Source of the DNA: Candidatus Poribacteria bacterium
GTDB taxonomy: Bacteria > Poribacteria > WGA-4E > WGA-3G
NCBI GenBank assembly: GCA_022394755.1
Contig: JAGFCA010000015.1
Span: 44,693 to 108,692 of the forward strand
Length of the DNA: 64,000 bases
Direction: 5' to 3'
The notes under the pieces: generated by a model
Databases searched by the model: none
Seen by the model: only the letters and a program-made list of their open reading frames with translations
What the model was told of the DNA's origin: nothing
Position numbers and translations under genes: made by a program
Shown: positions 51,304-64,000 of the stretch, one piece after another
Layout: the number at the start of each line of letters is the position of its first letter
Position numbering within the stretch: position 1 is the stretch's first letter

Positions 51304-51601
51304 TATTTCCTCCAAAATAAGACTATCATGCTTGGATAGCATATGGTTTAGTTGTGCAATAGCAATATAATGAGAAGGACTATGTAATGTTGTCTAATCT
51401 TGTGCCTTCTATTATATTCTGGTTTATTATTTATAGAGTGTTAACTAAATAATGGTACATGGATTCGCAAAATCAAATTTGTCAATGATCCAAATCAATC
51501 AAAGTATAACACATGAAAAAAAATCAAACTTTTTCTTGAATATTTTAGACAGATAGTATTATCCTCATTAGTAACATAATCATTTGCTATACAGGAATAC
51601 A

Positions 51602-52060
51602 ATGTACTGTCCAAGATGTCAAGCAACTCAATACATCAAATATGGTTTGGTTAATAACAGGCAATGCTATAAATGTAAGAACTGTCAATACCAATGGACA
51701 CGCACAACACCCCGGGGACATCCACCCGAACACAAGAAACTCACTGTCTTGTTATATTGCCACGGGCTTTCAATGAACGCTATTTCAAAACTTTTTCAAG
51801 TCTCTACAACTGCTGTGCTGAAATGGATTAGAAACTTTGCGAAAAAGCAGGCACCGAAACCGATGCTTTCATCCGGCACGCCTGTTGTTTTGGAACTTGA
51901 TGAGATGTGGCATTATATCAAAAACAAGAAAAATAAGCTTTGGATATGGAAAGCACTTGATAGAAACACCGGACACCTCATTGACTGGGAATGTGGTGGA
52001 CGCAACAAAGAAACACTTGAGAAACTCACAACACACCTTAATGAGGGAATAGTTTCGTAA
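51602..52060 (+). mobile_element. Truncated IS1-family transposase (fused InsA-InsB)
   Basis: MYCPRC...YKCKNC zinc ribbon, HTH, ELDEMWHYIKNKKNKLWIW; C-terminal half of the DDE domain is missing. Confidence 0.85.
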
Positions 52061-52200
52061 ACTCTTCTAATGTATAGCCAGTAAGGGACAGAAACGCATC
52101 AGGTCTGTCCTTGAGATCTTGATAATTGGTCATAAGTCGACCTCCTATCATAAGATAATAATCAGTATAACAGAGGTTAACAGAATTTAAAACTAAATCA
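52038..52200 (-). mobile_element. 5' remnant of an IS5-like (DDE_Tnp_4-type) transposase
   Basis: RBS aggagg and ATG 52133: MTNYQDLKDRPDAFLSLTGYTLEEF, resembling the N-terminus of that family; stops after 31 codons. Confidence 0.55.
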
Positions 52201-52207
52201 TTATAAT

Positions 52208-53667
52208 CAATACCTTCGCCAAAAACACTTGAATAAAAAGGGTATTTGTCTTAATGTTTTAAAGTTTACCCTAACTTTATAAAGAGACAAACACCCATGC
52301 CAGAAATTATAGCACTGTTTACTATACTTAATCCATGTTTATCTACGACTTCAATCCTTCATTTATGTCAAGTAGTATTTGCACTTCTTGCAATGACAGG
52401 TCGAGTCACAATGCTAAATATTTCCCGTTGGACTTCAAAAGGAGGGAGTTATCGTACCATACAACGCTTCTATAACACAGTTCTACCATGGTCTATGATG
52501 TGTTGGTTGTTTTTCAAAAACTATCTGTTTGACCCTGAAAGTGACTATCTCCTTGTCGCAGACGAAGTCGTCGTGTCAAAATCGGGACAAGAGACATATG
52601 GTTTAGATCGATATTTTTCTTCATTGTATGGAAAAGCGATTCCTGGATTGTCATTTTTAGCGGTGTCCTTAGTGAGTGTAAAAGATAGGCGTTCTTACCC
52701 GATGCTGATGGAGCAAATCGTGCGTAGCAACAAATCAACCAATCCAGATGTATCTGCAACCGAACAGTCTGATAATAAACTGACAGCCAAAACAAAACGA
52801 GGGCGCGGTCGTCCTAAAGGGAGTCGGAACCGAAACAAAAAGGATGTTACGCTCAGTGATACTTTGAAACAACTTCAAACAATGGTCAAAACAGTGATGC
52901 GACAGATAAACAATCATATCAAACCTGGATATTTTGTGCTTGATGGGTATTTCGGACACAATAATGCACAACAAATGGTAAGTCAATGTGATCTACAACT
53001 GATTTCAAAACTACGCTCAGATGCAGCACTCTATTATCCGCCATCAACACCCTATAATGGTCGTGGACGACCCGCCATCTACGGAGATCGTTTCAATTCA
53101 CAACAAAGTGATAAAAAATGGTGTGTCTCTGTTGAAACAACCGATAGTGTCAAGGCCGAAGTATATCAAGTACAGTTACGACATAAGCAGTTTGCAGACA
53201 CTCTCAATGTTGTTTGTATTCTCAAAACGAATAGGGTGACACAACAAAAATCACACGTTTTATTATTTAGTTCTGACTTAGAACTGAGTGCTGAAAAGAT
53301 GATTGATTATTACTCCCTTCGTTTTCAAATAGAGTTTAATTTTAGAGACGCAAAACAATATTGGGGATTGGAAGATTTTATGAATGTGAATAAAACACCT
53401 GTAAACAATGCATCGAACTTATCCTTGTTTATGGTAAATGTAAGTGCTAAGTTATCAGACACATTTCAATCTAAGAAAACGGAGAGTAGCGTATTAGATT
53501 TGAAGGCACACTTCCGAGGTTTGAAATATTTAGATGAAACATTAAAAATACTTCCGCAAAAACCTGAACCTATTGTTATTGAGCAAATCACGCAGCACCT
53601 TGGTTCTATTGGGGCTATTCATCACACGCAACCAGAACTAAATCCAGGATAATTGGCGAAGGTATTG
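52208..53667 (+). mobile_element. Complete IS4-like insertion sequence (1460 bp)
   Basis: Perfect 15-bp TIRs CAATACCTTCGCCAA / TTGGCGAAGGTATTG; 7-bp TSD TTATAAT (52201..52207 and 53668..53674). Confidence 0.92.
52297..53652 (+). CDS. DDE transposase, IS4-like
   Basis: LVADE, VLDGYF, and YREK motif YSLRFQIEFNFRDAK. Confidence 0.92.
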   Translation: MPEIIALFTILNPCLSTTSILHLCQVVFALLAMTGRVTMLNISRWTSKGGSYRTIQRFYNTVLPWSMMCWLFFKNYLFDPESDYLLVADEVVVSKSGQETYGLDRYFSSLYGKAIPGLSFLAVSLVSVKDRRSYPMLMEQIVRSNKSTNPDVSATEQSDNKLTAKTKRGRGRPKGSRNRNKKDVTLSDTLKQLQTMVKTVMRQINNHIKPGYFVLDGYFGHNNAQQMVSQCDLQLISKLRSDAALYYPPSTPYNGRGRPAIYGDRFNSQQSDKKWCVSVETTDSVKAEVYQVQLRHKQFADTLNVVCILKTNRVTQQKSHVLLFSSDLELSAEKMIDYYSLRFQIEFNFRDAKQYWGLEDFMNVNKTPVNNASNLSLFMVNVSAKLSDTFQSKKTESSVLDLKAHFRGLKYLDETLKILPQKPEPIVIEQITQHLGSIGAIHHTQPELNPG

Positions 53668-53693: not shown

Positions 53694-55625
53694 TCATATC
53701 CAACTATATACAGCGGAACGTAATATCAAACTCAATAAGGGCCAAAAACAACCCATCAACGCTTCACCCAATACCAATCCAATGAAAAATGGAATAGCTC
53801 TACGATAAGCGTTTATACCTCCATTCCGTAATATAATCCACTTCGTTACCATAGCAATCAAGAGTGGAAACCAAATAACATCTGTTGTACCCGGAGCGAC
53901 TCCAATCACATATCCTGCTGGATGCAACGGACACCACACAAAACGAGACCGTAAAAACATTATTCCCAAATTGGCAAAGAACGCAATTCCAAGAACACTA
54001 CTCGCTAACCAATCCATCGGTTTCGGATTGACTAACCATGATGAAAGAAAATTATATGTATCTGCACCACCTGCATGGATCTGTTCAGATCCCGCAGCAA
54101 CCCCCTCACTATATATCGCATACGGATAAAGTATCAGACTTGATAATATACCAACAAGGCTGGCTATCACCAGAACTATAAACATAGTTCTGTTACGTAT
54201 GTTTGTCCTTTCTGCAAGTTTAAACGCCTCAAGTTGATCCGGCATTGGATGTGTACGGAATGAAGCATAACTTGCACCACTCAACCAATTCATCAAAGAT
54301 AGCATTGTCAAATTACCTGCACGCAATCGTCTTGTTCCAAGAAGCGAAATCATCATGTATTGCGGTGTTAAATAACCAATTGCATGTATCGGAGGACCCA
54401 GTTCCGCACGCATACGTGTTAAACCGACTACAATCAACAAATATATCCCAATAAATACAACAAATGCCCACAACGACATCCCGCCTCTTACACAGAATAT
54501 AGCAAGTAATAATAACGATAACGCTAAGACTATCAGAGTTGTGCGATGCGATAATGCTTCATTCTGATTTTCTAACGGTTTCGGTCGAATCGCTTGGGAT
54601 ATTACCAATTTAAAATGCTTTCTACCGTTCCAACAGGCAATCGCAAGTAATGCAAGTAATGCACCTGCCCCCTGTTCGCCTAAAAATGGGTATCCCTGCA
54701 CCTTAGATACCCCAGAAGCACTACCAAAAAGCAATTGCACCTTCTTCATGATATAGAAGAATGTACAAGAAAATGCTAAATCAAGCGGTAAAATAAATGA
54801 GAAGCCAATTAAATAAGGATGAACTCGTAACGGTGTACTTCCAATTGCACTCCACGGTTTCTGAGTAAAGTACATGTTGAGATCGTATTTTCTGACAGGA
54901 ATTTCTGGTAATATAGGATAGAAATATTGCAATCCATTAAGCAGATTGATCCCTGCAGCTATACCGAAACCTATCCATAATAACTTACTTCTAAATATAC
55001 CTCGGTTCGTGGTGATTTCTAAGGGTATCTGTATAATTGGATAAGCAAGTTTCTCATTCTCTATCCACTGCTTCCTTATCAAAGATGTCAAACATAAGAA
55101 AATTAACATCAGTAAGAATATTACCGCTGACCAAGAAAGAATGGGAACAATCCAATAACTAAAGTATCCACCTGTGAAGAAATTTACATTTCCTTCGTAA
55201 AAATCATTGACTGTTTTTGGATCTTTTACGACAAGCCATTCAGGTAAATGATGAAATAATAATGCCTCCCAATCATTCTCTGGTGTAGCAAAACGATAAG
55301 CATAAGGTATCAATCCCATCAATCGAGGCATACAGTCATGCCCTGAAAAAGCACTACCCACTGCCAGCATACTATAAACTACAATTAGATCACGTTGTGT
55401 CAGTGAAACCTGAGGAGAAATCTTCCGTAACCAGAGATTAATCACTGTTATCATAAATATACCAAACATCACATTAACAGACATAGCAACTGTCGTTAAA
55501 TGGGCTGTATGCCATATCATCTCTACATAAGCAATCCAATAACTATTAGCGATAATAAGGAGTGTACCAATCAATACTGCCCTTTTGGTAATAGGGCTTG
55601 TTGATTGTAAGTGTGTTTGGTTCAT
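53694..55625 (-). CDS. Large polytopic membrane protein (DUF6785/DUF6784, OPT-like)
   Basis: RKQWIENEKLAYPI, RMRAELGPP, WCPLHPAGY, RNGGINAYR..PFFIGLVLGE. Confidence 0.75.
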   Translation of the reverse strand: MNQTHLQSTSPITKRAVLIGTLLIIANSYWIAYVEMIWHTAHLTTVAMSVNVMFGIFMITVINLWLRKISPQVSLTQRDLIVVYSMLAVGSAFSGHDCMPRLMGLIPYAYRFATPENDWEALLFHHLPEWLVVKDPKTVNDFYEGNVNFFTGGYFSYWIVPILSWSAVIFLLMLIFLCLTSLIRKQWIENEKLAYPIIQIPLEITTNRGIFRSKLLWIGFGIAAGINLLNGLQYFYPILPEIPVRKYDLNMYFTQKPWSAIGSTPLRVHPYLIGFSFILPLDLAFSCTFFYIMKKVQLLFGSASGVSKVQGYPFLGEQGAGALLALLAIACWNGRKHFKLVISQAIRPKPLENQNEALSHRTTLIVLALSLLLLAIFCVRGGMSLWAFVVFIGIYLLIVVGLTRMRAELGPPIHAIGYLTPQYMMISLLGTRRLRAGNLTMLSLMNWLSGASYASFRTHPMPDQLEAFKLAERTNIRNRTMFIVLVIASLVGILSSLILYPYAIYSEGVAAGSEQIHAGGADTYNFLSSWLVNPKPMDWLASSVLGIAFFANLGIMFLRSRFVWCPLHPAGYVIGVAPGTTDVIWFPLLIAMVTKWIILRNGGINAYRRAIPFFIGLVLGEALMGCFWPLLSLILRSAVYSWI

Positions 55626-55884
55626 TTTTATTGGAAGGTAAAGGTTAATAATCTGAAAATAGACTTCTGAAATTACTGAAGGTATTGCGAATTATTTGGA
55701 AAGATTCTCATAGGTATGGTATACTATAAAATACAAGTCTGTCAAGATGAAAAGATAGGAATACCCGTTAAATCCTAATGGTTAAAGCCATAGAATTCAG
55801 ATTCAATTCTGATACGGTTTTAACCTTTACGGCAATTAGAGACCACAAATAATCTTGACATTTTTTAACATTTGTTAAGAATTA

Positions 55885-56103
55885 CTATAGTTTGGACAAT
55901 TTATGAGAGGTCTCCATCAATATTCGAAGTGTTTCTGGCTTTTTCAACACGTTTCTCACACCAATCCAACTTTGAGAAAATATTTTCAGATGATCCTAAG
56001 GAAGCCCCAACGGGGCGAAATGTTTGTAGAAACAGCATATTTGCACATAGAATAAGTCCCTGCGGGGCGAAATGTGTATTGCATAAAACTGTCCAAACTA
56101 TTG
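55885..56103. mobile_element. 219-bp MITE with 9-bp TSD carrying a hairpin doublet
   Basis: TIRs CTATAGTTTGGACAATTTATG / CATAAAACTGTCCAAACTATTG; TSD TAAGAATTA at 55876..55884 and 56104..56112. Confidence 0.85.
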
Positions 56104-56579
56104 TAAGAATTATGACTTATGATTATTCAATTAATGAAGGTGCGTCAACTTCAGAGTTTGTAATACGCTTACTTTGGGTTTCAGAAGTTCTACTGTTGGA
56201 TAGTCCAAACTAAATTAGTTGCAATCTAATTAGTAATTGAACGTTATATATTAATTAAGGTAAATTCGAATAAAGAAGTCATAGGTACCCCTGTGTGACA
56301 AATACCTCATAACTCTATTGAAGAAATTTGTTCGTATGGTCTACTTTACAGAAGAAATTATCTATAGATTTAACGTGGACTTTCCATTATTCTAATGAAT
56401 AAAAGTGTAGAGATTTATCTCATGCTAAGATCAATCCAATTACCCTATTAAAAATAGTATTATGGATAAACTCAACTATTTTAACTTACACAATTTGAAC
56501 TAATTTCTAATATATACAACCTAATAATATTGTGTAAGTCTTACTTTGATTATGACACCAGTATAGAGGAGCTATTTAT

Positions 56580-57683
56580 ATGGAACTATCTTTTGAAAAA
56601 GATGAACTGTTATTTTCTTTACAAATTGTACAAGGTGTAGCAAGTGAACGTAATACATTACCTATTCTACAAAATGTACTCATTCGCGCTGAAAACGGAA
56701 AAATCGAGTTTTCGGCTACTGACTTAGAGGTCGGCATAAGAGTTGTTGTAATAGGTACTATTAAGGAAGAGGGATCAATCACAGTATCAGCAAAGAAATT
56801 CACTGATTTAGTCAGAGAGTTACCCAGCAAACCAATTGAACTGGCTACAACTGCAAACGATCGTGTTGAGTTAACCTGTGGAGAAGGGGTCTATAAAATG
56901 ATTGGTATTTCAGATGAAGACTTCCCAGAAATACCTACTGTTGAAGGAGAATCTATAGTCATAGACGGAAGTATATTAAACTCTGTTATTCACAAAACTG
57001 AATTTGCTGCATCCAGAGATGAGGTGCGTTACCTACTCAACAGCCTATATTTTAATATCCTTGAGGATAAAACTGAAATTGTTGCCACTGATGGTACAAA
57101 GCAACTCGCACTCACACATTGTGATCCTCTAAACACTTCTGATGAAACAAGCGGTTTTATTGTTCCATTGAAAGCAGTACGAGAGATTGAACGTACATTT
57201 GCTGAATCTGCAGAGGTTAAAATCGCTTTGGCAAAAAACCAACTTCTACTGGCTAATGACAATACCACACTCACAACACGGTTAGTTGAAGGTGAATATG
57301 CTAATTACCAAGGTGTAATTCCAGAATCATCCGAAGGTCGCGCAGTTGTCACAAAAGAGTTGTTATTACGTGCGACAAGACGGGTGGCTTTGCTCTCAAA
57401 CCCAAAAAACTTCCTGATTTGCTTAGAAATTGATCCTGAACGCATCACAGTCTCGGCAAACTCACCAGAACTCGGGGAAGCACGAGAAACTGTCGAAGTA
57501 GAATCAAGCACTGGAAGTGTTCGGATCGGTGTTGATGCACGTGTTCTCACAGATGTCATTTCACACATCGAAACTGATTCTCTTATCATTGAGTTTTCTG
57601 GGGAATTTACACAATTTGCAGTGAAACCTCAGAGCGACGAATCACACACCTGTATCATCATGCCGATGCGGTTAGAATCATAA
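56580..57683 (+). CDS. dnaN: DNA polymerase III beta sliding clamp (orphan, divergent)
   Basis: TLPILQNVLI, ATDLE, DFPEIP, RLVEGEY, C-terminal IIMPMRL. Confidence 0.92.
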   Translation: MELSFEKDELLFSLQIVQGVASERNTLPILQNVLIRAENGKIEFSATDLEVGIRVVVIGTIKEEGSITVSAKKFTDLVRELPSKPIELATTANDRVELTCGEGVYKMIGISDEDFPEIPTVEGESIVIDGSILNSVIHKTEFAASRDEVRYLLNSLYFNILEDKTEIVATDGTKQLALTHCDPLNTSDETSGFIVPLKAVREIERTFAESAEVKIALAKNQLLLANDNTTLTTRLVEGEYANYQGVIPESSEGRAVVTKELLLRATRRVALLSNPKNFLICLEIDPERITVSANSPELGEARETVEVESSTGSVRIGVDARVLTDVISHIETDSLIIEFSGEFTQFAVKPQSDESHTCIIMPMRLES

Positions 57684-57826
57684 GTATCTGATAATAGGAT
57701 ACAATTGAATTAACCCTATGGACTACTTATACGGTAGACCATAGGGTCGATTTTGTTTACACCGAAACTTATAGGCTAATTCGGCATTGATTCTAAGGTC
57801 GCTTCTAACGAACTCACCATAATTAT

Positions 57827-58180
57827 CAGGACTTACGCAATTTTTACAAAGAAAGGAACACTTATAGGACTTACGCAGGTCCTCTATGTCTGTAGCCCCG
57901 GGGAATGCCCAACGCATTCATACCCGGGGAACTCCTAAATGGGGTTCATACCGTTGATTCCTGATTCGCGGGGCGAAAGGTGTGTAGAAAGTGGTGCAGC
58001 CCCTATTCCTTAGCCCGGGGAATGCCCAACGGCATTCATACCGTTGATTCGCGGGGCGAAAGGTGTATTTATATGGATTTTAACATGGCTTTTCTACTGA
58101 CAGCAAAATTGTGGTGTATTAGTAAAAATAACAATTTCTTGCTAATCTGACTGATAATTCAGTGTTTTGCGTAAGTCCTA
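57827..58180. mobile_element. 354-bp MITE-like element with nested repeats
   Basis: TIRs CAGGACTTACGCAA / TTGCGTAAGTCCTA; flanking ATTAT duplicated (57822..57826 and 58181..58185); extra internal end at 57865. Confidence 0.75.
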
Positions 58181-58195
58181 ATTATAATGTCAAGA

Positions 58196-59638
58196 TTATT
58201 TATCTTTATCTACTGACTTCGATTTTATATCCGATAATAACCCATCTTTCTCAATAATTGCCATCTCCGTCATCTTCACAAGAACACTTTCAGGATGAAC
58301 AGCATACCACTTTCCGTCTACAAAGGTTATAATTGCGTATTCTCTTTCATTTTTATCAAGAGTTTCAGAAAAGTAATCAGCAGGCAACCAGTTTTCATAA
58401 GTGATAGGTTCATCATTGTCCCATTTCCATTTATCACTGTTTTTGGCAGAACTTAACCCTATCCAGTAAAATGTATGGCCAAATACCGCTCCTAACCACT
58501 CCTGCTCCTTGGGATCGTTAATTGTTACAAGATATGCATTTTCATCACTGGCTTGAGCAATAGCCTCTTCTCGAGTTCTACAGAATATCCTTTTATATGC
58601 ATGGCCATTCGCTGGATTTACTATCCATACCTCATTTGACGTTGGAAGTGGAGGCTTTTCTGGAGTAGAAGATGGTTGAATTTCATCCGTTTTCTTTTTC
58701 ATCTTCGGAGGTAGTGGTTTAGGAGGAATTGGTTCACTATCAAAAGTAAATGTCAAACCATCAATCTGTTGGTCAGGTTCAAGATGTATCTGTTGAGGAG
58801 GTGTAACTAATCCCTGATACTCTAATGACATTGTGTAAATTGCAGTCTTATCCATATTACGGAGATATTGTACAAAATTACCTTTGTCATCAATCCAAAC
58901 GCCAGTTCCTCCTCCTCCGCTCCCACTACCACTATTACCTTTATGATCATCATAACGGAATTTAAGGGAAATCCGAATACGTGTATTTGAGAGTGGTGTA
59001 CCATCTTTAAAGATAACACGACCACGTATCCGCATGCGAGGTTTAACAATTACCTCAACGTTCTTGATATGTATATCAGGATCAATACCAAAAACAATTT
59101 CATCAAAAAAATCACTCCGCGGATAAAAATTTATATCATTTATACGTAGTGATACAACTTTAGCATCAGGTTCAAAATCGTTCTCATGAAAACCAAAATT
59201 AGTACGAGTAAAACCAGAAATATAGTTTGGATTGAATCCTTTGTCATCCCATGTCAAATAATCTTTAAGAAAATCATCATAATTATCTGGTAGACGTTTG
59301 TCAATATTTTCAGATAAGATCCCAAAATAATGTGGTCCTTGTGTAATGCCTGTTATAGAAAAACTTCCATCTGCTTTTGTCTGAGTCCGATTTAATGCAA
59401 AATAGCCATAAGGAAGATTGGGCCGAATTGTTATTCCTTTATGAATTATAAGTGGTGCGATAAAAACGGGTAATTCAGCCATGGGATTACCTTCTGTATC
59501 AATAACCCGACCCGATACAGCCCCCGAACCTTCCTGACAAATACCATGTACTGTGAATATACTGAAAAGTGTCTGTATTGTTAGCAGCATTACAATTGTC
59601 TTTTTTCTAAAATACTTTCTTATCATTATTTTCTCCAT
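58196..59638 (-). CDS. Secreted protein with two carboxypeptidase-regulatory-like domains and a C-type lectin domain
   Basis: Signal peptide; SGRVIDTEGNP and RGRVIFKDGTPL; NGHAYK...YLVTIND.KEQEWL...YWIGLS...WKWDN..PITYENW. Confidence 0.85.
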   Translation of the reverse strand: MEKIMIRKYFRKKTIVMLLTIQTLFSIFTVHGICQEGSGAVSGRVIDTEGNPMAELPVFIAPLIIHKGITIRPNLPYGYFALNRTQTKADGSFSITGITQGPHYFGILSENIDKRLPDNYDDFLKDYLTWDDKGFNPNYISGFTRTNFGFHENDFEPDAKVVSLRINDINFYPRSDFFDEIVFGIDPDIHIKNVEVIVKPRMRIRGRVIFKDGTPLSNTRIRISLKFRYDDHKGNSGSGSGGGGTGVWIDDKGNFVQYLRNMDKTAIYTMSLEYQGLVTPPQQIHLEPDQQIDGLTFTFDSEPIPPKPLPPKMKKKTDEIQPSSTPEKPPLPTSNEVWIVNPANGHAYKRIFCRTREEAIAQASDENAYLVTINDPKEQEWLGAVFGHTFYWIGLSSAKNSDKWKWDNDEPITYENWLPADYFSETLDKNEREYAIITFVDGKWYAVHPESVLVKMTEMAIIEKDGLLSDIKSKSVDKDK

Positions 59639-59670
59639 ATTAACAATGCGTCCATTTTCTAATGTAGAAA

Positions 59671-61713
59671 TTATTCAAAGGTTCCACCTTTTTTTTCTAT
59701 TAAAGCTGTTTGCATCCAACTCCATCTAATATTTTCAGGTCCAATATCCTCCCATTCCTGACCAGTTAGAATGACATAATCTTCATCACCGTTATCAACA
59801 TCATCCGGTTCATGTTTTGCCCAATTGGTATATTCAGAAGTATCTCCATTCTGCCATTGCCATTGTCCTTCTTCTTCAATATCAGTAAGACCAATTAATA
59901 AACGTATCGGATTGAAAACCATACTTATCCACTCCTGTTCTTCTTCATCATTTATCGTAACAAGATACGCTTCTTCATCCTTTGCTTGTATAATCGCATC
60001 TTCAGGACTGAGACAACTGATTTTCTTATAGGCATGACCATTTGCAGGATTTACTACCCAAACATCCCGCGCGTCAATTCGACTATGAGCTGATACATTC
60101 GCTTTGAACAGAGGGTTCTCTGGAGCATTAGGCAAGATCGGTTCTGTCAAGTTAAAGGTTACTTCATGGAACCGATCATTAAGTTTTACAATTATCGGTT
60201 TTAATATAACCCTTTGTGCTTTATATTCAATTGACATTATGTAGAATCCATCTAATTGATGATTTATAACTTGAACAAAGTTCCCATCATTATCTGTCTT
60301 TTGTCCCCATGAATCCCGTCCTTCAAGACTATCTAAACCCAAATGTTTTACTTTGAAGTCTATTCGTTCATTGGCAACTGGTGTTCCATCTACTTGTAAC
60401 ACCGTTCCCTTGACTTCTATGAATTGACGAACAGTAACTTCAATACTGTTAAGTTGCTCTCTGGTTTTTGCAGCAAATACAATCCCACGATGAATTGCTC
60501 TTCCACCAAGGGAATAGAAGGTCATTCCTTTGGTTTTTATTTTAATGATTTCAGAATCCGGGTCGAAATACGGTAAAACTCCCAATAGCACCGGTTCCGT
60601 GTATAGAATCGGTATATGGAAACTCCCGTCTGTATTAATCTCTGCTGGGTATGCTAATGGGTCATTAGGAAAGAAACTTTCAGCTGATGCTTTTGGAAAC
60701 CAAGCCCCTATACCTTCTTCAACAGGCATAATGGCGATCTTGACATCATCAACTGGATTTCCTTTTTCATCTATGATATGACCAGAAGCCGAATAACTTT
60801 CCTTGTTATTCTGTTTGTCACTTTTGTCAACACTTTCATCTGCAGCATCTACTGTTCCTATCTGATTCTTTACATTCGGATCAGATGGTAAATTTGAAAA
60901 TACACTGGCATCCACTATGTCTATTGACATCTCAGATGTTGCTTCTAAATTGTAGGGTTGCTGAAATACAGCCCTACGTTGTGAGCCAAATCCAAGCATC
61001 AATGCCACCAATAAAAACGTTGATGTTGTTATAATCCAAGGAACAACTGGTCTTCCCCCTGAAGAAGAGGGATCAATCTGTATACCAGTTTCTTTGATCG
61101 TTCTTACAATGTTCTGTGTTAAGTCTGCTGAGGGTTGGTATCCTCCTAAAGTCTCACGCACCATACGATCCTCCTTTGCTAAACGCCTACGCGCACGATG
61201 AAGACGACTTTTTACTGTGTTCAACGATACACCTAAAAACTCACTTATCTCTTTAATTGGACTATCAGCCAGATAATGAAGTGTCACTACAATTCTCTCA
61301 CTTTCTGGTAGTTTTTGGAGGAGACGTTTTACAAGAGCAACCCGTTTTTCTGAAACGCGTTCTTCACGCTGTGCTGTGGCATAATCAGAATAAAGTTGTT
61401 CCTCAAGTTTAACAATTGGAATGGTTTCTAAGGATTGCATTTCTTGTGGAGATTTTCTTAACAATGTATCGCACATACGATTTGCTATCACATAGAGCCA
61501 ACCGGCAAACAACTGAGGATTCTTCAGTGTGTTGAGTTTTCTGTAAGCTCTGAGGAAAGTGTCCTGTGTAATCTCTTCAGCAATATGAAAATCACCGATC
61601 TTACGCCATGCAAGCGCGTGCACACGTTTTTGGTATCTCTGCACTAAAACAGTAAATGCATCTTGGTTACCAGATAATGTCTGTTTTATCAATTGATAAT
61701 CGGTCATTTCCAT
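59671..61713 (-). CDS. ECF sigma-70 factor fused via a TM helix to carboxypeptidase-regulatory-like and C-type lectin domains
   Basis: sigma2 AEEITQDTFLRAY..FAGWLYVIA; sigma4 EISEFLGVSLNTVKSRLHRAR; TM PWIITTSTFLLVALMLGFG; lectin IGLTD.EEEGQWQW..YTNW..EPD; ATG 61713 with RBS ggaga. Confidence 0.9.
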   Translation of the reverse strand: MEMTDYQLIKQTLSGNQDAFTVLVQRYQKRVHALAWRKIGDFHIAEEITQDTFLRAYRKLNTLKNPQLFAGWLYVIANRMCDTLLRKSPQEMQSLETIPIVKLEEQLYSDYATAQREERVSEKRVALVKRLLQKLPESERIVVTLHYLADSPIKEISEFLGVSLNTVKSRLHRARRRLAKEDRMVRETLGGYQPSADLTQNIVRTIKETGIQIDPSSSGGRPVVPWIITTSTFLLVALMLGFGSQRRAVFQQPYNLEATSEMSIDIVDASVFSNLPSDPNVKNQIGTVDAADESVDKSDKQNNKESYSASGHIIDEKGNPVDDVKIAIMPVEEGIGAWFPKASAESFFPNDPLAYPAEINTDGSFHIPILYTEPVLLGVLPYFDPDSEIIKIKTKGMTFYSLGGRAIHRGIVFAAKTREQLNSIEVTVRQFIEVKGTVLQVDGTPVANERIDFKVKHLGLDSLEGRDSWGQKTDNDGNFVQVINHQLDGFYIMSIEYKAQRVILKPIIVKLNDRFHEVTFNLTEPILPNAPENPLFKANVSAHSRIDARDVWVVNPANGHAYKKISCLSPEDAIIQAKDEEAYLVTINDEEEQEWISMVFNPIRLLIGLTDIEEEGQWQWQNGDTSEYTNWAKHEPDDVDNGDEDYVILTGQEWEDIGPENIRWSWMQTALIEKKGGTFE

Positions 61714-61746
61714 GTGTCTTCTCCAAATGTCTGTTTCATAATACAA

Positions 61747-61775
61747 AGACACCTAATTACAATGCAAAGGTTGCA
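61747..61775 (-). promoter_or_regulatory. Candidate ECF-sigma (auto)promoter
   Basis: TGCAACC-tttgcattgtaattag-GTGTCT; AAC/GTC-type ECF elements about 35 nt upstream of the ATG. Confidence 0.5.
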
Positions 61776-63060
61776 TAAAATGCAAGTATATCGATAATTT
61801 GTGAAAAATAAAGTGGAAGATGAATAGATAAAGGATATAATATGTCAGAAAAAGAACTACATAAGGAACGGTGTAACTTCATTATCCGATTTCTTTTTCA
61901 TTTAACTTTAACATTACGACATATAACAAAATATAACCAATTAGCCAATGAGTTGTAGTCCCGTAGGGACGCAATGTTATGTCGTTACCACCAATATCCC
62001 AAACCCCAGCGGACAGGTCCATCAAATTTGCAGGTGTTTTCTTTTTTGTATATAGATGTGTTACTATTTATCACTTTATATAAGTACTTTTACACACAAA
62101 CTATAGTATTGGCAATTTCTGAGAAGGAACAACCAATTTTCAAAAGTCTCTGGTTATAATCCCATTCCCCACACCGATCCCTGAGAAAGACAAACTCAGA
62201 TGAAAAATTAGCCTAAGTCTATAAGATGTGTACCTCTTAAAACTGCCCAAACTTATTAACATATACCAATACCTTGTATAATCCTATTCTTAGCTATATC
62301 AATCAATAATATACCACTTCAAATTGAAATGTCTCTATTTCTACAAACTGTCAGTTTGTGATGTATTATATTACATCTCACATAAACCTGCAATGTAGTC
62401 CTGTTTTTTAAAATTAGTATGGGCTATCAGACTCACATAAAAAATCTACAACTAAAACCAATAAATATTCTTACACATGGTTCAGACAGATTTAATCAAT
62501 TTATCTAAAACTTTTTGAAGAAAAAACTTACAAATACAATCTAAAGTAACATACGTGACAAAATCCGTTGCATATAGTTATTAACGTGTGTTATTCTATT
62601 TTATGTATAATGAAAAATATCAACTAAAAGGGTTATCCAGTGATAAATATATACAGATCTACATATCTACACAAAACACTATATAATTCCCTACAAACCT
62701 ATGGCCTAACAAGGTTAATAGAAGTTTTACACAAAAACACACTTTTCAAGTTTTTCAAATTTTTAAAAAATCACATCACTTCACTAATTCGCTATGATCC
62801 CAAATCCAGACTGACTTCACCGTACTTCAGTTTTAAATATTTAAAAAATAAACTTGAAAAACTTGAAAAACTAAACATTAAGGTTGAAATCTATTTAAAC
62901 TGATTTAAAGTTCTGATAATTCAAACGAAATGTGTATTGCTTAAATTATCGAAACTAAAGGAAATATAACAATTTTTTAAATTTGAGAATTCTATATTAA
63001 ATATGCTATAAACGCATACAGGGACTGTAATGAAAGGATCTATACTTGCATGAATTAAAA

Positions 63061-63336
63061 CTACACTTTGTAGGAAAAGTGTAACATTTTAAGACTTTTC
63101 TAATAGAATATTGTAAGTTGGAAATAGCGAATAAATCACAAGAAAAATGCAGGACCTTAGATGGAATAATACTGAAAACTGTAAACTGTAAACTGCAAAC
63201 CAATATAGGAAATGTGTAACATTATTAAGACTTCTCTAATAAAATATTGTAAGTTGGAAATAGTGGTAAAATCATAAGAAAAATGCAAGACCTTAGATGG
63301 AATAATACTAAAAACTATAAACTACAAACTGTAAAC
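63061..63336. repeat. Tandem ~135-bp duplication; first unit shares a 30-bp exact inverted copy with 3735..3764
   Basis: Units 63071..63200 and 63206..63336; CTACACTTTGTAGGAAAAGTGTAACATTTT. Confidence 0.85.
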
Positions 63337-63509
63337 TAAAATATATGTGATTCACGAAGAATTGGTACAATTAAATTTATAAACCCTTATACAGTAAGGG
63401 TTCGTAAAATTGCTTCGTGCAGGTTTGCGTGAAAGTGCTATCAACCCCAATACTGAAAATTAACACATTATCGTATCACATTACCCACATATCCACTATT
63501 ATTAATGGA

Positions 63510-63538
63510 TTGACAAATTGAGAGTAAAATGATAGCAT
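63510..63538 (+). promoter_or_regulatory. Candidate sigma70 promoter of dgoD
   Basis: TTGACA-17 bp-TAGCAT with TG extension. Confidence 0.5.
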
Positions 63539-63592
63539 AAACCTTCTACCGCTTATAGTTCTAATATCAATCTCATTCTAAGGTAACCACTG

Positions 63593-64000
63593 ATGAAAAT
63601 AACAAAATTAGAGACGTTTCTTGTTCAGCCACGCTGGCTTTTTCTGAAAATTCATACAGATGAAGGATTAGTAGGACTCGGTGAACCAATTTTAGAAGGT
63701 CGTGCCAAGACATGTGCACAAGCTGTTGATGAACTTGCCCCATATCTAATTGGGGAAGATCCAAGACGTGTTGTTCACCACTGGCAAGCAATGTATCGAC
63801 ACGCATTCTACCGTGGAGGTCCTATCTTAACAAGTGCATTGAGTGGCGTAGAACAGGCACTCTGGGACCTTGCCGGAAAAGCACTTGATGTCCCTGTCTA
63901 CCAACTCTTCGGTGGACCAACACGAGACCGTATAAGGTTATATAAAGGTGGGGGCGACCCCGAGGGAATTAAAGAGTGGATCGATAAAGGCTTTACTGCA
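63593..64000 (+). CDS. dgoD: Galactonate dehydratase (enolase superfamily), partial
   Basis: Not in the ORF track: MKITKLETFLVQPRWLFLKIHTDEGLVGLGEPILEGRA...FYRGGPILTSALSGVEQALWDLAGK. Confidence 0.9.
   Translation, partial: MKITKLETFLVQPRWLFLKIHTDEGLVGLGEPILEGRAKTCAQAVDELAPYLIGEDPRRVVHHWQAMYRHAFYRGGPILTSALSGVEQALWDLAGKALDVPVYQLFGGPTRDRIRLYKGGGDPEGIKEWIDKGFTA

Follow-up and report, generated by a model that had tools for sequence, protein, structure and literature searches.

A putative membrane-tethered ECF sigma factor with a C-type lectin-like ectodomain and a conserved, secreted-type paralogue as its probable operon partner in Candidatus Poribacteria

The DNA considered here is a stretch of 64,000 nt (the window) of contig JAGFCA010000015.1, from the Candidatus Poribacteria assembly GCA_022394755.1, in which two adjoining minus-strand open reading frames (ORFs) occupy positions 58196–61752. 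The first one, P0001, encodes in a single polypeptide an extracytoplasmic function (ECF) sigma factor, one transmembrane (TM) helix and an ectodomain that ends in a C-type lectin-like domain (CTLD), while the second one, P0002, encodes a sigma-less paralogue of the ectodomain. The pairing of the two genes and the promoter upstream of the fusion gene are conserved in related genomes, and P0001 is a member of a family of 22 such fusions in its own genome. It is probable, though far from assured, that P0001 is a sigma/anti-sigma fusion which is freed by regulated proteolysis, and that it forms with P0002 an autoregulating operon whose second product modulates the sensor.

Results and discussion

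Domain organization of the fusion protein and its partner

Residue numbers are those of the 693-aa reading of P0001 from a GTG codon (59671–61752), unless the 680-aa form is named; the coordinates of all the features are summarized in Table 1. Judged from the DNA, translation of the fusion gene begins at position 61713 (ATG) and not at 61752 (GTG), because GGAG precedes the ATG as in the orthologues, and the GTG sits inside the –10 element of the promoter. The database protein P0003 is identical to the resulting 680-aa form.

The N-terminal part of P0001 shows the features of an ECF (group 4) sigma factor, with only the regions sigma2 and sigma4 and with ECF profiles above threshold: the NCBIfam sigma70-ECF model TIGR02937 scored 79.3 bits (cut-off 42.9), and Pfam PF07638 was also above its cut-off. 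The closest solved sigma factors were SigW (5wuq, E 9e-26) and also sigma-E, both of which are under the control of regulated intramembrane proteolysis. Only one hydrophobic stretch (residues 236–254) was found by hydropathy, which places a TM helix between sigma4 and the lectin, and Lectin_C was matched at residues 592–669 (35.1 bits, cut-off 22.6), as it was in all 21 orthologues (PF00059). The original prediction, made from the sequence of the window, of an ECF sigma, a TM helix and a lectin-like ectodomain in one polypeptide was thus borne out by Pfam, NCBIfam and hydropathy, with the TM segment recovered as a helix also in a structure model. Its two carboxypeptidase-regulatory-like domains fared less well: two beta-sandwiches were modelled and 17 of the 21 orthologues matched PF13620 (E<=0.01), but P0001 itself gave no Pfam match of the carboxypeptidase-regulatory-like type.

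Concerning P0002, its sole hydrophobic stretch is N-terminal (residues 14–33) and signal-peptide-like, and its start is probably the ATG at 59626. BLASTP aligned residues 319–689 of P0001 with 38–466 of P0002 (28% identity, E 2e-45), and this alignment takes in the strings VW(V/I)VNPANGHAYK and AYLVTIND..EQEW that had been pointed out as common to both proteins; so, the gene that follows after 32 nt does repeat the ectodomain of the fusion behind a signal-peptide-like segment, as had been claimed. CarboxypepD_reg remained below the cut-off in P0002 (residues 41–103; 28.1 versus 32.3). The two genes are probably co-transcribed, to judge by the short gap, and the reading of the neighbouring genes revealed none of anti-sigma type, in accordance with the absence of an anti-sigma gene nearby that had been stated before.

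Two structure models were obtained. The AlphaFold model of residues 300–693 (21-sequence alignment, mean predicted local distance difference test, pLDDT, 67.6) contained two beta-sandwiches and an alpha/beta lectin domain with a long loop of low confidence. A Foldseek search with this 394-residue ectodomain model gave TM-scores of at most 0.24 (tandem Ig-like folds, pilin folds and a mannose-receptor fragment), which is only enough to say that the predicted fold is assignable no further than beta-sandwiches plus CTLD. The AF2 model of residues 14–299 (33 sequences, pLDDT 69) showed sigma2, a long linker helix, sigma4, two short helices and the TM helix, with the periplasmic juxtamembrane motif described below unstructured. 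An ESM Atlas search with residues 14–320 returned generic ECF clusters only.

Conservation of the gene pair

The DNA around the best full-length sigma-lectin matches was fetched and its ORFs were mapped, which gave 20 loci from related metagenome-assembled genomes that are not independent samples. In every one of the 20, the sigma-lectin gene is followed, as the next gene downstream and on the same strand, by a sigma-less paralogue of 440–500 aa, and the signal-peptide-like N-terminus is present in 20/20 partners. Counted by gene, 19 of 22 related fusions have a partner within 200 nt; two broken fusion genes (L061 and L064) are still followed by a gene of the partner clade, and one fusion (the second gene of L047) extends to the limit of the DNA fetched. 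A second, diverged sigma-lectin lineage (35–43% identity, 697–736 aa) was represented by 13 loci with 14 fusion genes, and in all 14 cases the fusion gene is immediately followed by a sigma-less lectin ORF of 417–493 aa, at a distance of –16 to 367 nt. A contig-truncated copy in the genome of the window (contig C225) also has a downstream sigma-less partner. The pairing is therefore not limited to one genome, as the survey established in both lineages.

Trees were computed with FastTree from the lectin domain only (146 columns, one short domain), so that the support figures given here are local support values of a single-domain comparison. The 21 fusions formed one lectin clade together with 7 sigma-less genes (support 98, then 96), and the 20 partners formed a separate clade together with 9 other genes (100, then 99), with a support of 100 for the partner clade characterized by the sequence WYAV. 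The fusions of the second lineage were a single clade (87), and so were their partners (99). Since the lectins of fusions and partners fall in separate supported clades, the partner is, as far as these trees go, an old, separately evolving gene that has been kept beside the fusion, and not a recent local duplicate.

In many loci, chiefly of the sister genus, the fusion is surrounded by sigma-less paralogues, in arrays that can reach about ten members; the window holds the pair only, with no array. As a separate observation, sigma-lectin genes are often adjoined by further sigma-TM fusions with other ectodomains (570–1033 aa), which make up clusters of several tethered sigmas (L047, L051, L089–L101).

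Putative promoter upstream of the fusion genes

The pattern TGCA[AC]C-N18-20-GTC[TA] ends 25–36 nt before the start codon of all 23 sigma-lectin genes considered, and it had a total of 44 matches in the 653,656 nt scanned; three of the distances (L054, the first fusion of L050, and the window, where the ORF call is over-long) are based on alignment-corrected starts. The form of the motif is TGCAACC-N18-GTCT in the genus of the window and TGCACC-N18-CGTCA in the sister genus. In shape it is like the promoters known for SigW and other ECF sigmas. Because the motif is conserved and positioned before the start, we infer that it is an ECF-type promoter by which the sigma factor would drive its own gene. 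In the genome of the window, 15 of 131 loose motif matches (10.4 Mb) fall within 90 nt 5′ of family genes.

A near-identical promoter also heads the upstream array of sigma-less paralogues in 6 of 11 sister-genus loci. Since promoter copies precede these arrays, it can be suggested that the paralogues are, at least partly, output of the system. A wider regulon in the window genome was considered and rejected: the strict motif had 10 matches versus roughly 5 expected (an estimate from base composition), and the non-family matches precede MoxR, DUF58, CotH and PA14 genes, which are unconvincing as a regulon.

The tether module and the family of sigma-TM fusions

In all the fusions, sigma4 is followed in the same order by a short helix (consensus LTENIMxEI), the sequence PSxxKPxxPW, a Gly/Ser/Thr-rich TM helix and a periplasmic motif, FQQPYNLEATSEMSIDIVDASV in P0001, with P253 invariant and Q251 and Y254 nearly so in the family alignment. 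The motif is a candidate for the region of site-1 cleavage or of docking. One invariant Cys (C81 of the 680-aa form) is found across the 33 aligned family members.

A search of 1.84 billion representatives with a profile of the tether module retrieved only 279 clusters at E<=0.001. Among the best 150 of these 279 clusters, the sigma part ahead of the tether was full in 111, partial in 21 and missing in 18, and 16 of the latter 18 were fragments shorter than 500 aa. All the named homologues belong to Candidatus Poribacteria. In a sample of the phylum, 96 of 121 genomes had a match at E<=1e-60; by family, the genomes with a match were 77 of 81 in f1, 15 of 19 in f3, 3 of 9 in f2 and 0 of 11 in the others, and within the sample the full-length sigma-lectin matches were confined to the two main genera of f1. 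The sole sequencing run that contains the full stretch is a DNA run of a sponge metagenome, from which the stretch may derive.

In the genome of the window (G000; 5.19 Mb, 93.8% complete), 22 ORFs of more than 450 aa have a sigma domain over 45% identical to that of P0001. A Pfam scan of 19 proteins of this genome (14 fusions, 2 tether-only ORFs and 3 sigma-less paralogues) detected WD40 propellers in 13 of them and BNR, Sortilin-Vps10 or DUF6242-type propeller signatures in 6, one of them weak. P0001 is the sole complete lectin-bearing fusion, the second copy, on C225, being cut by the contig end. Sigma-less WD40 paralogues adjoin 8 of the 22 fusions. An RseP-like M50 protease gene is also present (G000:C190:43272-44879).

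Stand-alone anti-sigma forms of the tether were considered and rejected, and a two-gene ancestor has no good support: the apparent tether-only ORFs of C26, C27 and C225 are contig-end cuts; the split forms of C82 and C164_26819 are not genuine either, with in-frame stops or a frameshift. In the contigs C26, C27 and C225 the break falls within the conserved part of family members that codes for the sigma and, because several contigs end in this way, the true number of copies may exceed 22. A different case is L080 (G000:C157:20102-23689), which encodes a 1195-aa TM-WD40 protein with the tether module near the N-terminus and no sigma domain; it is not at a contig end, and the family promoter motif is located 46 nt 5′ of the gene.

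It could be thought that the fusion is never released, being either a ToxR-like transcription factor that works from the membrane or a sigma kept inactive by permanent sequestration. With about 40 residues between sigma4 and the TM helix, the cytoplasmic linker might let RNA polymerase bind at the membrane. However, the juxtamembrane motif is conserved, the TM helices are rich in Gly, Ser and Thr, an RseP homologue is encoded in the genome and, in the portion of a review of the field that deals with them, all the characterised fused or membrane-held sigmas are activated by proteolysis (PMC8999054), so that a fusion without release seems very improbable.

The lectin site and the nature of the ligand

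A phmmer search of the PDB with P0001 matched animal CTLDs, such as those of the mannose receptor (E 2e-16) and SRCL/CL-P1 (E 2e-12). In the alignment to the SRCL structure 2ox8, a galactose-binding CTLD, the residues EPD (648–650), ED (657–658) and WED (667–669) of P0001 coincide with QPD, ED and WND. The Ca2+/sugar-like residues ascribed before to the sigma-linked lectin are thus there in P0001, but they are not a general property of the orthologues, since the full canonical set EP[DN]+ED+W[EQN]D is kept in only 3 of 21 fusions. Considering its parts, [EQ]-P is present in 20 of the 21 complete fusions, the other one having no EP motif; the third residue of EPx is D or N in 10 and K, H, G or Q in 10; ED is present in 17; and, in WxD, W is kept in 21 and D in 19, with K or V as the middle residue in 7. 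In terms of single positions, conservation among the 21 fusions reaches at least 90% for P649, D651, D658 and D669, and W667 does not vary. The I-G-L of the WIGL-type core (LIGL or WIGL) is invariant in the alignments of both fusions and partners.

The partners are different in this respect. P0002 carries ADSET, NEREYA and KWYAV at the columns of the acidic cluster, and 20 of 20 partners are without the cluster and share an invariant WYAV, so the loss of the acidic site by the soluble paralogue, as stated in the original prediction, is general in the partner clade. The role of decoy proposed there for the partner is accordingly unlikely if the ligand binds at the acidic site, because the partner does not have that site.

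It is a serious possibility, to which we give a little less than an even chance, that the ligand of the lectin-like domain is not a sugar but a protein or some other molecule, for instance its own secreted paralogues or a protein of the sponge matrix. Many C-type lectin-like domains are known to bind non-sugar ligands. The scarcity of the full canonical set and the substitutions in EPx and WxD go in this direction, together with the absence of both CTLD disulfides (there is one Cys per lectin domain, C580 in P0001 and C353 in P0002, and 0–2 in relatives), the low confidence of the long loop in the ectodomain model, and the propellers of WD40 or BNR type that sister fusions use, modules that typically bind proteins. 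On the other hand, the full EPD/ED/WED set of P0001 aligns with that of a CTLD that binds galactose, and the acidic cluster (D651, D658, D669 and W667) is strongly conserved among the fusions, and the partners lack it. On these sequences, the chances of a glycan and of a non-glycan ligand appear roughly balanced. As to the host origin attributed to the putative glycan, the only pointer to it is that the DNA comes from a sponge metagenome.

The two cysteines C580 (about 60013–60015) and C353 (about 58580–58582) share one alignment column. An intermolecular disulfide between them was considered and not retained as a universal feature, as the Cys is kept in 20 of 20 partners but is missing in 3 of 21 fusions. 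The action of a diversity-generating retroelement on the lectin was also rejected, since no repeat longer than 40 nt involves lectin-coding DNA in positions 56000–64000 of the window.

Proposed mode of activation and role of the partner

A mechanism that would accommodate these observations is as follows. The sigma domain would be cytoplasmic and held at the membrane by the tether formed by the short helix, the TM helix and the conserved periplasmic motif, with the two beta-sandwiches and the CTLD facing outward as a sensor. A change of the ectodomain, either by binding of a ligand or by loss of a bound partner, would expose the juxtamembrane region to site-1 cleavage, after which an RseP-type site-2 protease would free the sigma domain. 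The freed sigma would then transcribe from its own TGCAACC-N18-GTCT promoter, giving more fusion and more product of the co-transcribed +1 gene. Proteolytic release is proposed because known fused or membrane-held sigmas (IutY, SCO4117, RsgI), as far as their cited descriptions go, work in this manner, and it fits the conserved ECF-type promoter and the RseP-like protease of the genome.

Several observations weigh against this proposal. The positive-inside rule favours neither orientation of the TM helix of P0001, with 1 K/R in the 15 residues before it and 2 after it. The region after sigma4 has no match to known anti-sigma families in the Pfam scan of P0001, and the second short helix that follows sigma4, LTQNIVRTIKE (196–209), is modelled with only moderate confidence (pLDDT 56–70). 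The periplasmic motif shows no known cleavage signature and, in the 33-member family alignment, no invariant Asn-Pro of the RsgI kind. In the window genome, the motif does not occur within 450 nt of the other sigma-less lectin arrays, on C42, C185, C226, C135 and C72, and no RNA runs containing positions 58100–61900 of the window were listed. To this should be added the incomplete canonical lectin set of most orthologues, and the promoters that head sigma-less arrays in the sister genus.

Regarding the +1 protein, a useful parallel is provided by the sigma-E system of E. coli, where the periplasmic protein RseB, whose gene comes just downstream in the operon of the sigma, binds the ectodomain of the anti-sigma RseA and gates site-1 cleavage. 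P0002 has no sequence or fold relationship to RseB, being instead a paralogue of the sensor itself. By our analysis, the most likely role of the +1 protein is nevertheless that of a dedicated partner, a feedback modulator of the tethered ectodomain following the logic of RseB on RseA, and it would be at the same time the minimal output of the operon. An action on the ectodomain is favoured because the position and the clade of the partner are strictly kept while other paralogues vary, its presumed ligand site is changed, and the window genome keeps only the pair. Whether as co-receptor or as inhibitor, such a role is possible.

The +1 paralogue could instead be only output: the sigma would sense a ligand and switch on secreted lectin-like or adhesin proteins, with no contact between partner and sensor. 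We regard this as possible but not probable. The sister-genus arrays headed by the same promoter type speak for it, as do the co-transcription expected from the 32-nt gap, the WD40 fusions that adjoin sigma-less WD40 paralogues, and the similarity of RsgI/SigI ectodomains to modules of the regulated cellulosome (PMC10328401, PMC6852018). It explains less well why the +1 adjacency is strict (34 of 34, with a dedicated clade) while the other array members range from 0 to 9 per locus, why the window genome retains the pair only, and why it is the partner that has specifically lost the acidic site and carries an invariant motif of its own. The modulator and output views may both be true.

A broader and rather unlikely extension can be formulated, according to which each of the about 20 sigmas per genome is anchored to a copy of the secreted family (WD40, BNR or lectin) that it controls, and the dedicated, soluble +1 copy pairs with it through an ancestral self-association surface. 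If this were so, the cell would meter whether its own secreted, eukaryote-like proteins are free or engaged with the sponge matrix and adjust their production, and the eukaryote-like expansions of sponge symbionts would be a sigma-controlled, self-sensing surface system.

Comparison with known systems

That an ECF sigma can be fused through the membrane to a sensor was already known, mostly from bioinformatics and in a few cases from experiment, and the fused sigma/anti-sigma proteins IutY and SCO4117 are precedents of activation by proteolysis in the review passages that treat them (PMC8999054). IutY of Pseudomonas putida (ECF243) is similar to P0001 in that a single polypeptide has the ECF sigma at its N-terminus, followed by one TM segment, and its C-terminal part in the periplasm, and regulated proteolysis by Prc and RseP frees its sigma domain (PMC8999054, PMC5411451). 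As described in these sources, IutY differs by a FecR-type anti-sigma part and a TonB-dependent outer-membrane transducer. P0001 has two beta-sandwiches and a CTLD as ectodomain and a co-encoded, paralogous secreted partner, with no Pfam match to FecR or another anti-sigma and no transducer gene among its neighbours.

SCO4117 of Streptomyces coelicolor (ECF52), with the related ECF48 and ECF53, also combines an ECF sigma, one or more TM segments, a Pro-rich region and an extracytoplasmic carbohydrate-binding domain, and proteolytic activation is proposed for this type in the corresponding part of the review (PMC8999054). ECF52 proteins, as presented there, are actinobacterial and contain a zinc-finger (ZAS-like) anti-sigma element. 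In P0001 no zinc finger of the HxxxCxxC type occurs between sigma4 and the TM helix, its only Cys being at 94 and 580; the tether module and the sensor fold are different ones, and the +1 paralogue is conserved.

The SigI/RsgI systems of Clostridium thermocellum resemble the present family in that each genome has many paralogous sigma/anti-sigma units, in which the part next to the membrane is constant and the outward-facing sensor varies; in the sections of the studies that describe them, the sensors resemble domains of the regulated secreted proteins, and the signal is a juxtamembrane cleavage followed by RseP (PMC10328401, PMC12203970). In the same descriptions, sigma and anti-sigma are separate proteins, sigma-I is not of the ECF type, and the folded periplasmic domain of RsgI, of about 130 aa, undergoes autocleavage at Asn-Pro. 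P0001 has an ECF sigma, which is fused, and the periplasmic part conserved in its family is a motif of about 25 aa in which no Asn-Pro is invariant.

Concerning the Planctomycetes group ECF57 or ECF01-Gob, a TM helix of ECF01-Gob was reportedly noticed by Jogler in 2012. The likeness is on the side of the family, as most of the 22 paralogues of the window genome carry WD40 ectodomains, and ECF57 is described as made up of multi-copy ECF sigmas with long C-terminal WD40-like extensions (PMC8999054, PMC7826278). By the same descriptions ECF57 is set apart by two conserved Cys that link sigma2 and sigma4, versus one in the P0001 family, and they mention neither a lectin ectodomain, which P0001 has in place of WD40, nor a paired paralogue.

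Judged by its sequence, P0001 is outside the tested defining features of IutY/ECF243, ECF52, ECF57 and RsgI. No paper was found that links Poribacteria with ECF sigma fusions; the words Poribacteria, lectin and WD40 are absent from the main text of the ECF reclassification, whose supplements may list related groups (PMC7826278). A single-cell study of Poribacteria of 2014 described an abundance of WD40 proteins that carry TM helices or signal peptides, and it never used the word sigma.

The C-type lectin-like domain would be a new type of sensor for membrane-fused ECF sigmas, and the strictly conserved, anciently diverged secreted paralogue of that sensor as operon partner leads to a concrete two-protein model. 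The phylum-restricted family, with about 22 copies per genome and 279 clusters, ties many of the eukaryote-like WD40, BNR and lectin proteins of Poribacteria to what would be dedicated transcription switches. Moreover, with the promoter motif the regulons of uncultivated sponge symbionts become predictable from sequence, and the parts are small enough for reconstitution in E. coli.

Table 1. Coordinates in the window of the features of the fusion gene, its partner and the promoter.
Feature	Position	Strand	Basis or remarks
–35-like element TGCAACC	61769–61775	–	Kept 5′ of 23/23 sigma-lectin genes and of 15 own-genome family genes
–10-like element GTCT, 18 nt after the –35-like element	61747–61750	–	Motif comparison; overlaps the GTG of the ORF call
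Shine–Dalgarno GGAG, 7 nt 5′ of the ATG	61721–61724	–	Read from DNA; GGAG-ATG layout also in orthologues
Sigma-TM-lectin fusion gene, 680 aa + stop	59671–61713	–	Pfam, NCBIfam; ATG start
Sigma-70 region 2 (residues 36–100)	61453–61647	–	Pfam PF04542 Sigma70_r2, E 1e-11
Sigma-70 region 4 (residues 141–191)	61180–61332	–	Pfam PF08281 Sigma70_r4_2, E 1e-17
Family-specific tether module (residues 194–299): helix LTQNIVRTIKE, PxxPW, TM helix, periplasmic motif	60856–61173	–	Family alignments
Single TM helix (residues 236–256)	60985–61047	–	Hydropathy, KD19 maximum 1.97; helix in AF2 model
Periplasmic juxtamembrane motif FQQPYNLEATSEMSIDIVDASV (residues 263–284; family consensus FQxPYSLDAxSEMTVEIVDAP)	60901–60966	–	Kept in all paralogues whatever the ectodomain
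First beta-sandwich, CarboxypepD_reg-like (residues about 320–426)	60475–60795	–	AF2 model strands 21–127; orthologue PF13620 matches
Second beta-sandwich (residues about 434–534)	60151–60453	–	AF2 model strands 135–235; Foldseek: tandem Ig-like, pilin, CnaB-type folds
C-type lectin-like domain (residues about 561–689)	59686–60072	–	Pfam PF00059; PDB CTLD matches, E 1e-16 to 1e-12
Acidic cluster EPD...ED...WED (residues 648–669), aligned with Ca2+ site 2/sugar site of CTLDs	59746–59811	–	Alignment to 2ox8
Intergenic gap fusion/partner, 32 nt, no terminator-like site	59639–59670	–	DNA read
+1 partner gene P0002, 480 aa: signal peptide, two beta-sandwiches, Pro-rich linker, CTLD without acidic cluster	58196–59638	–	Pfam, hydropathy, BLASTP
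Lectin_C domain of P0002 (residues 364–448)	58295–58549	–	Pfam PF00059, E 2e-10, 41.8 bits

Flanking DNA

The neighbours of the gene pair are dnaN (convergent), a DUF6785/DUF6784 membrane protein gene, an IS1 (insertion sequence) fragment, a DDE_5 transposase gene and an enolase-superfamily gene. Rfam and tRNA scans of positions 55600–64000 found nothing. On the promoter side of the fusion gene there is a 1.8-kb AT-rich stretch (61776–63590; GC 0.27–0.34) with no ORF longer than 90 aa, which contains a 119-nt direct repeat (63089–63207 and 63225–63343, 87% identity).

On the other side, short direct repeats resembling repetitive extragenic palindromic (REP) sequences occur on both sides of dnaN (57893–58073 and 56011–56084), including the intergenic space that separates dnaN from the partner gene; among them are TGATTCGCGGGGCGAAAGGTGT and TAGCCCGGGGAATGCC...CATTCATACC, with related copies of CGGGGCGAAATGT. 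Directly upstream of dnaN there is a gap of about 950 nt (55626–56579; GC 0.32–0.35), which could be origin-proximal DNA; dnaA is absent from the part of the window that was read (ORFs listed from 51584 onward). Beyond the gap, positions 53694–55625 of the minus strand encode a 643-aa multi-pass membrane protein with matches to DUF6785 (E 2e-152) and DUF6784, and mobile genes occupy positions 51584–53652, namely a 158-aa IS1-type fragment, which matches PF03400 over only 51 residues of the DDE domain, and a DDE_5 transposase of 451 aa.

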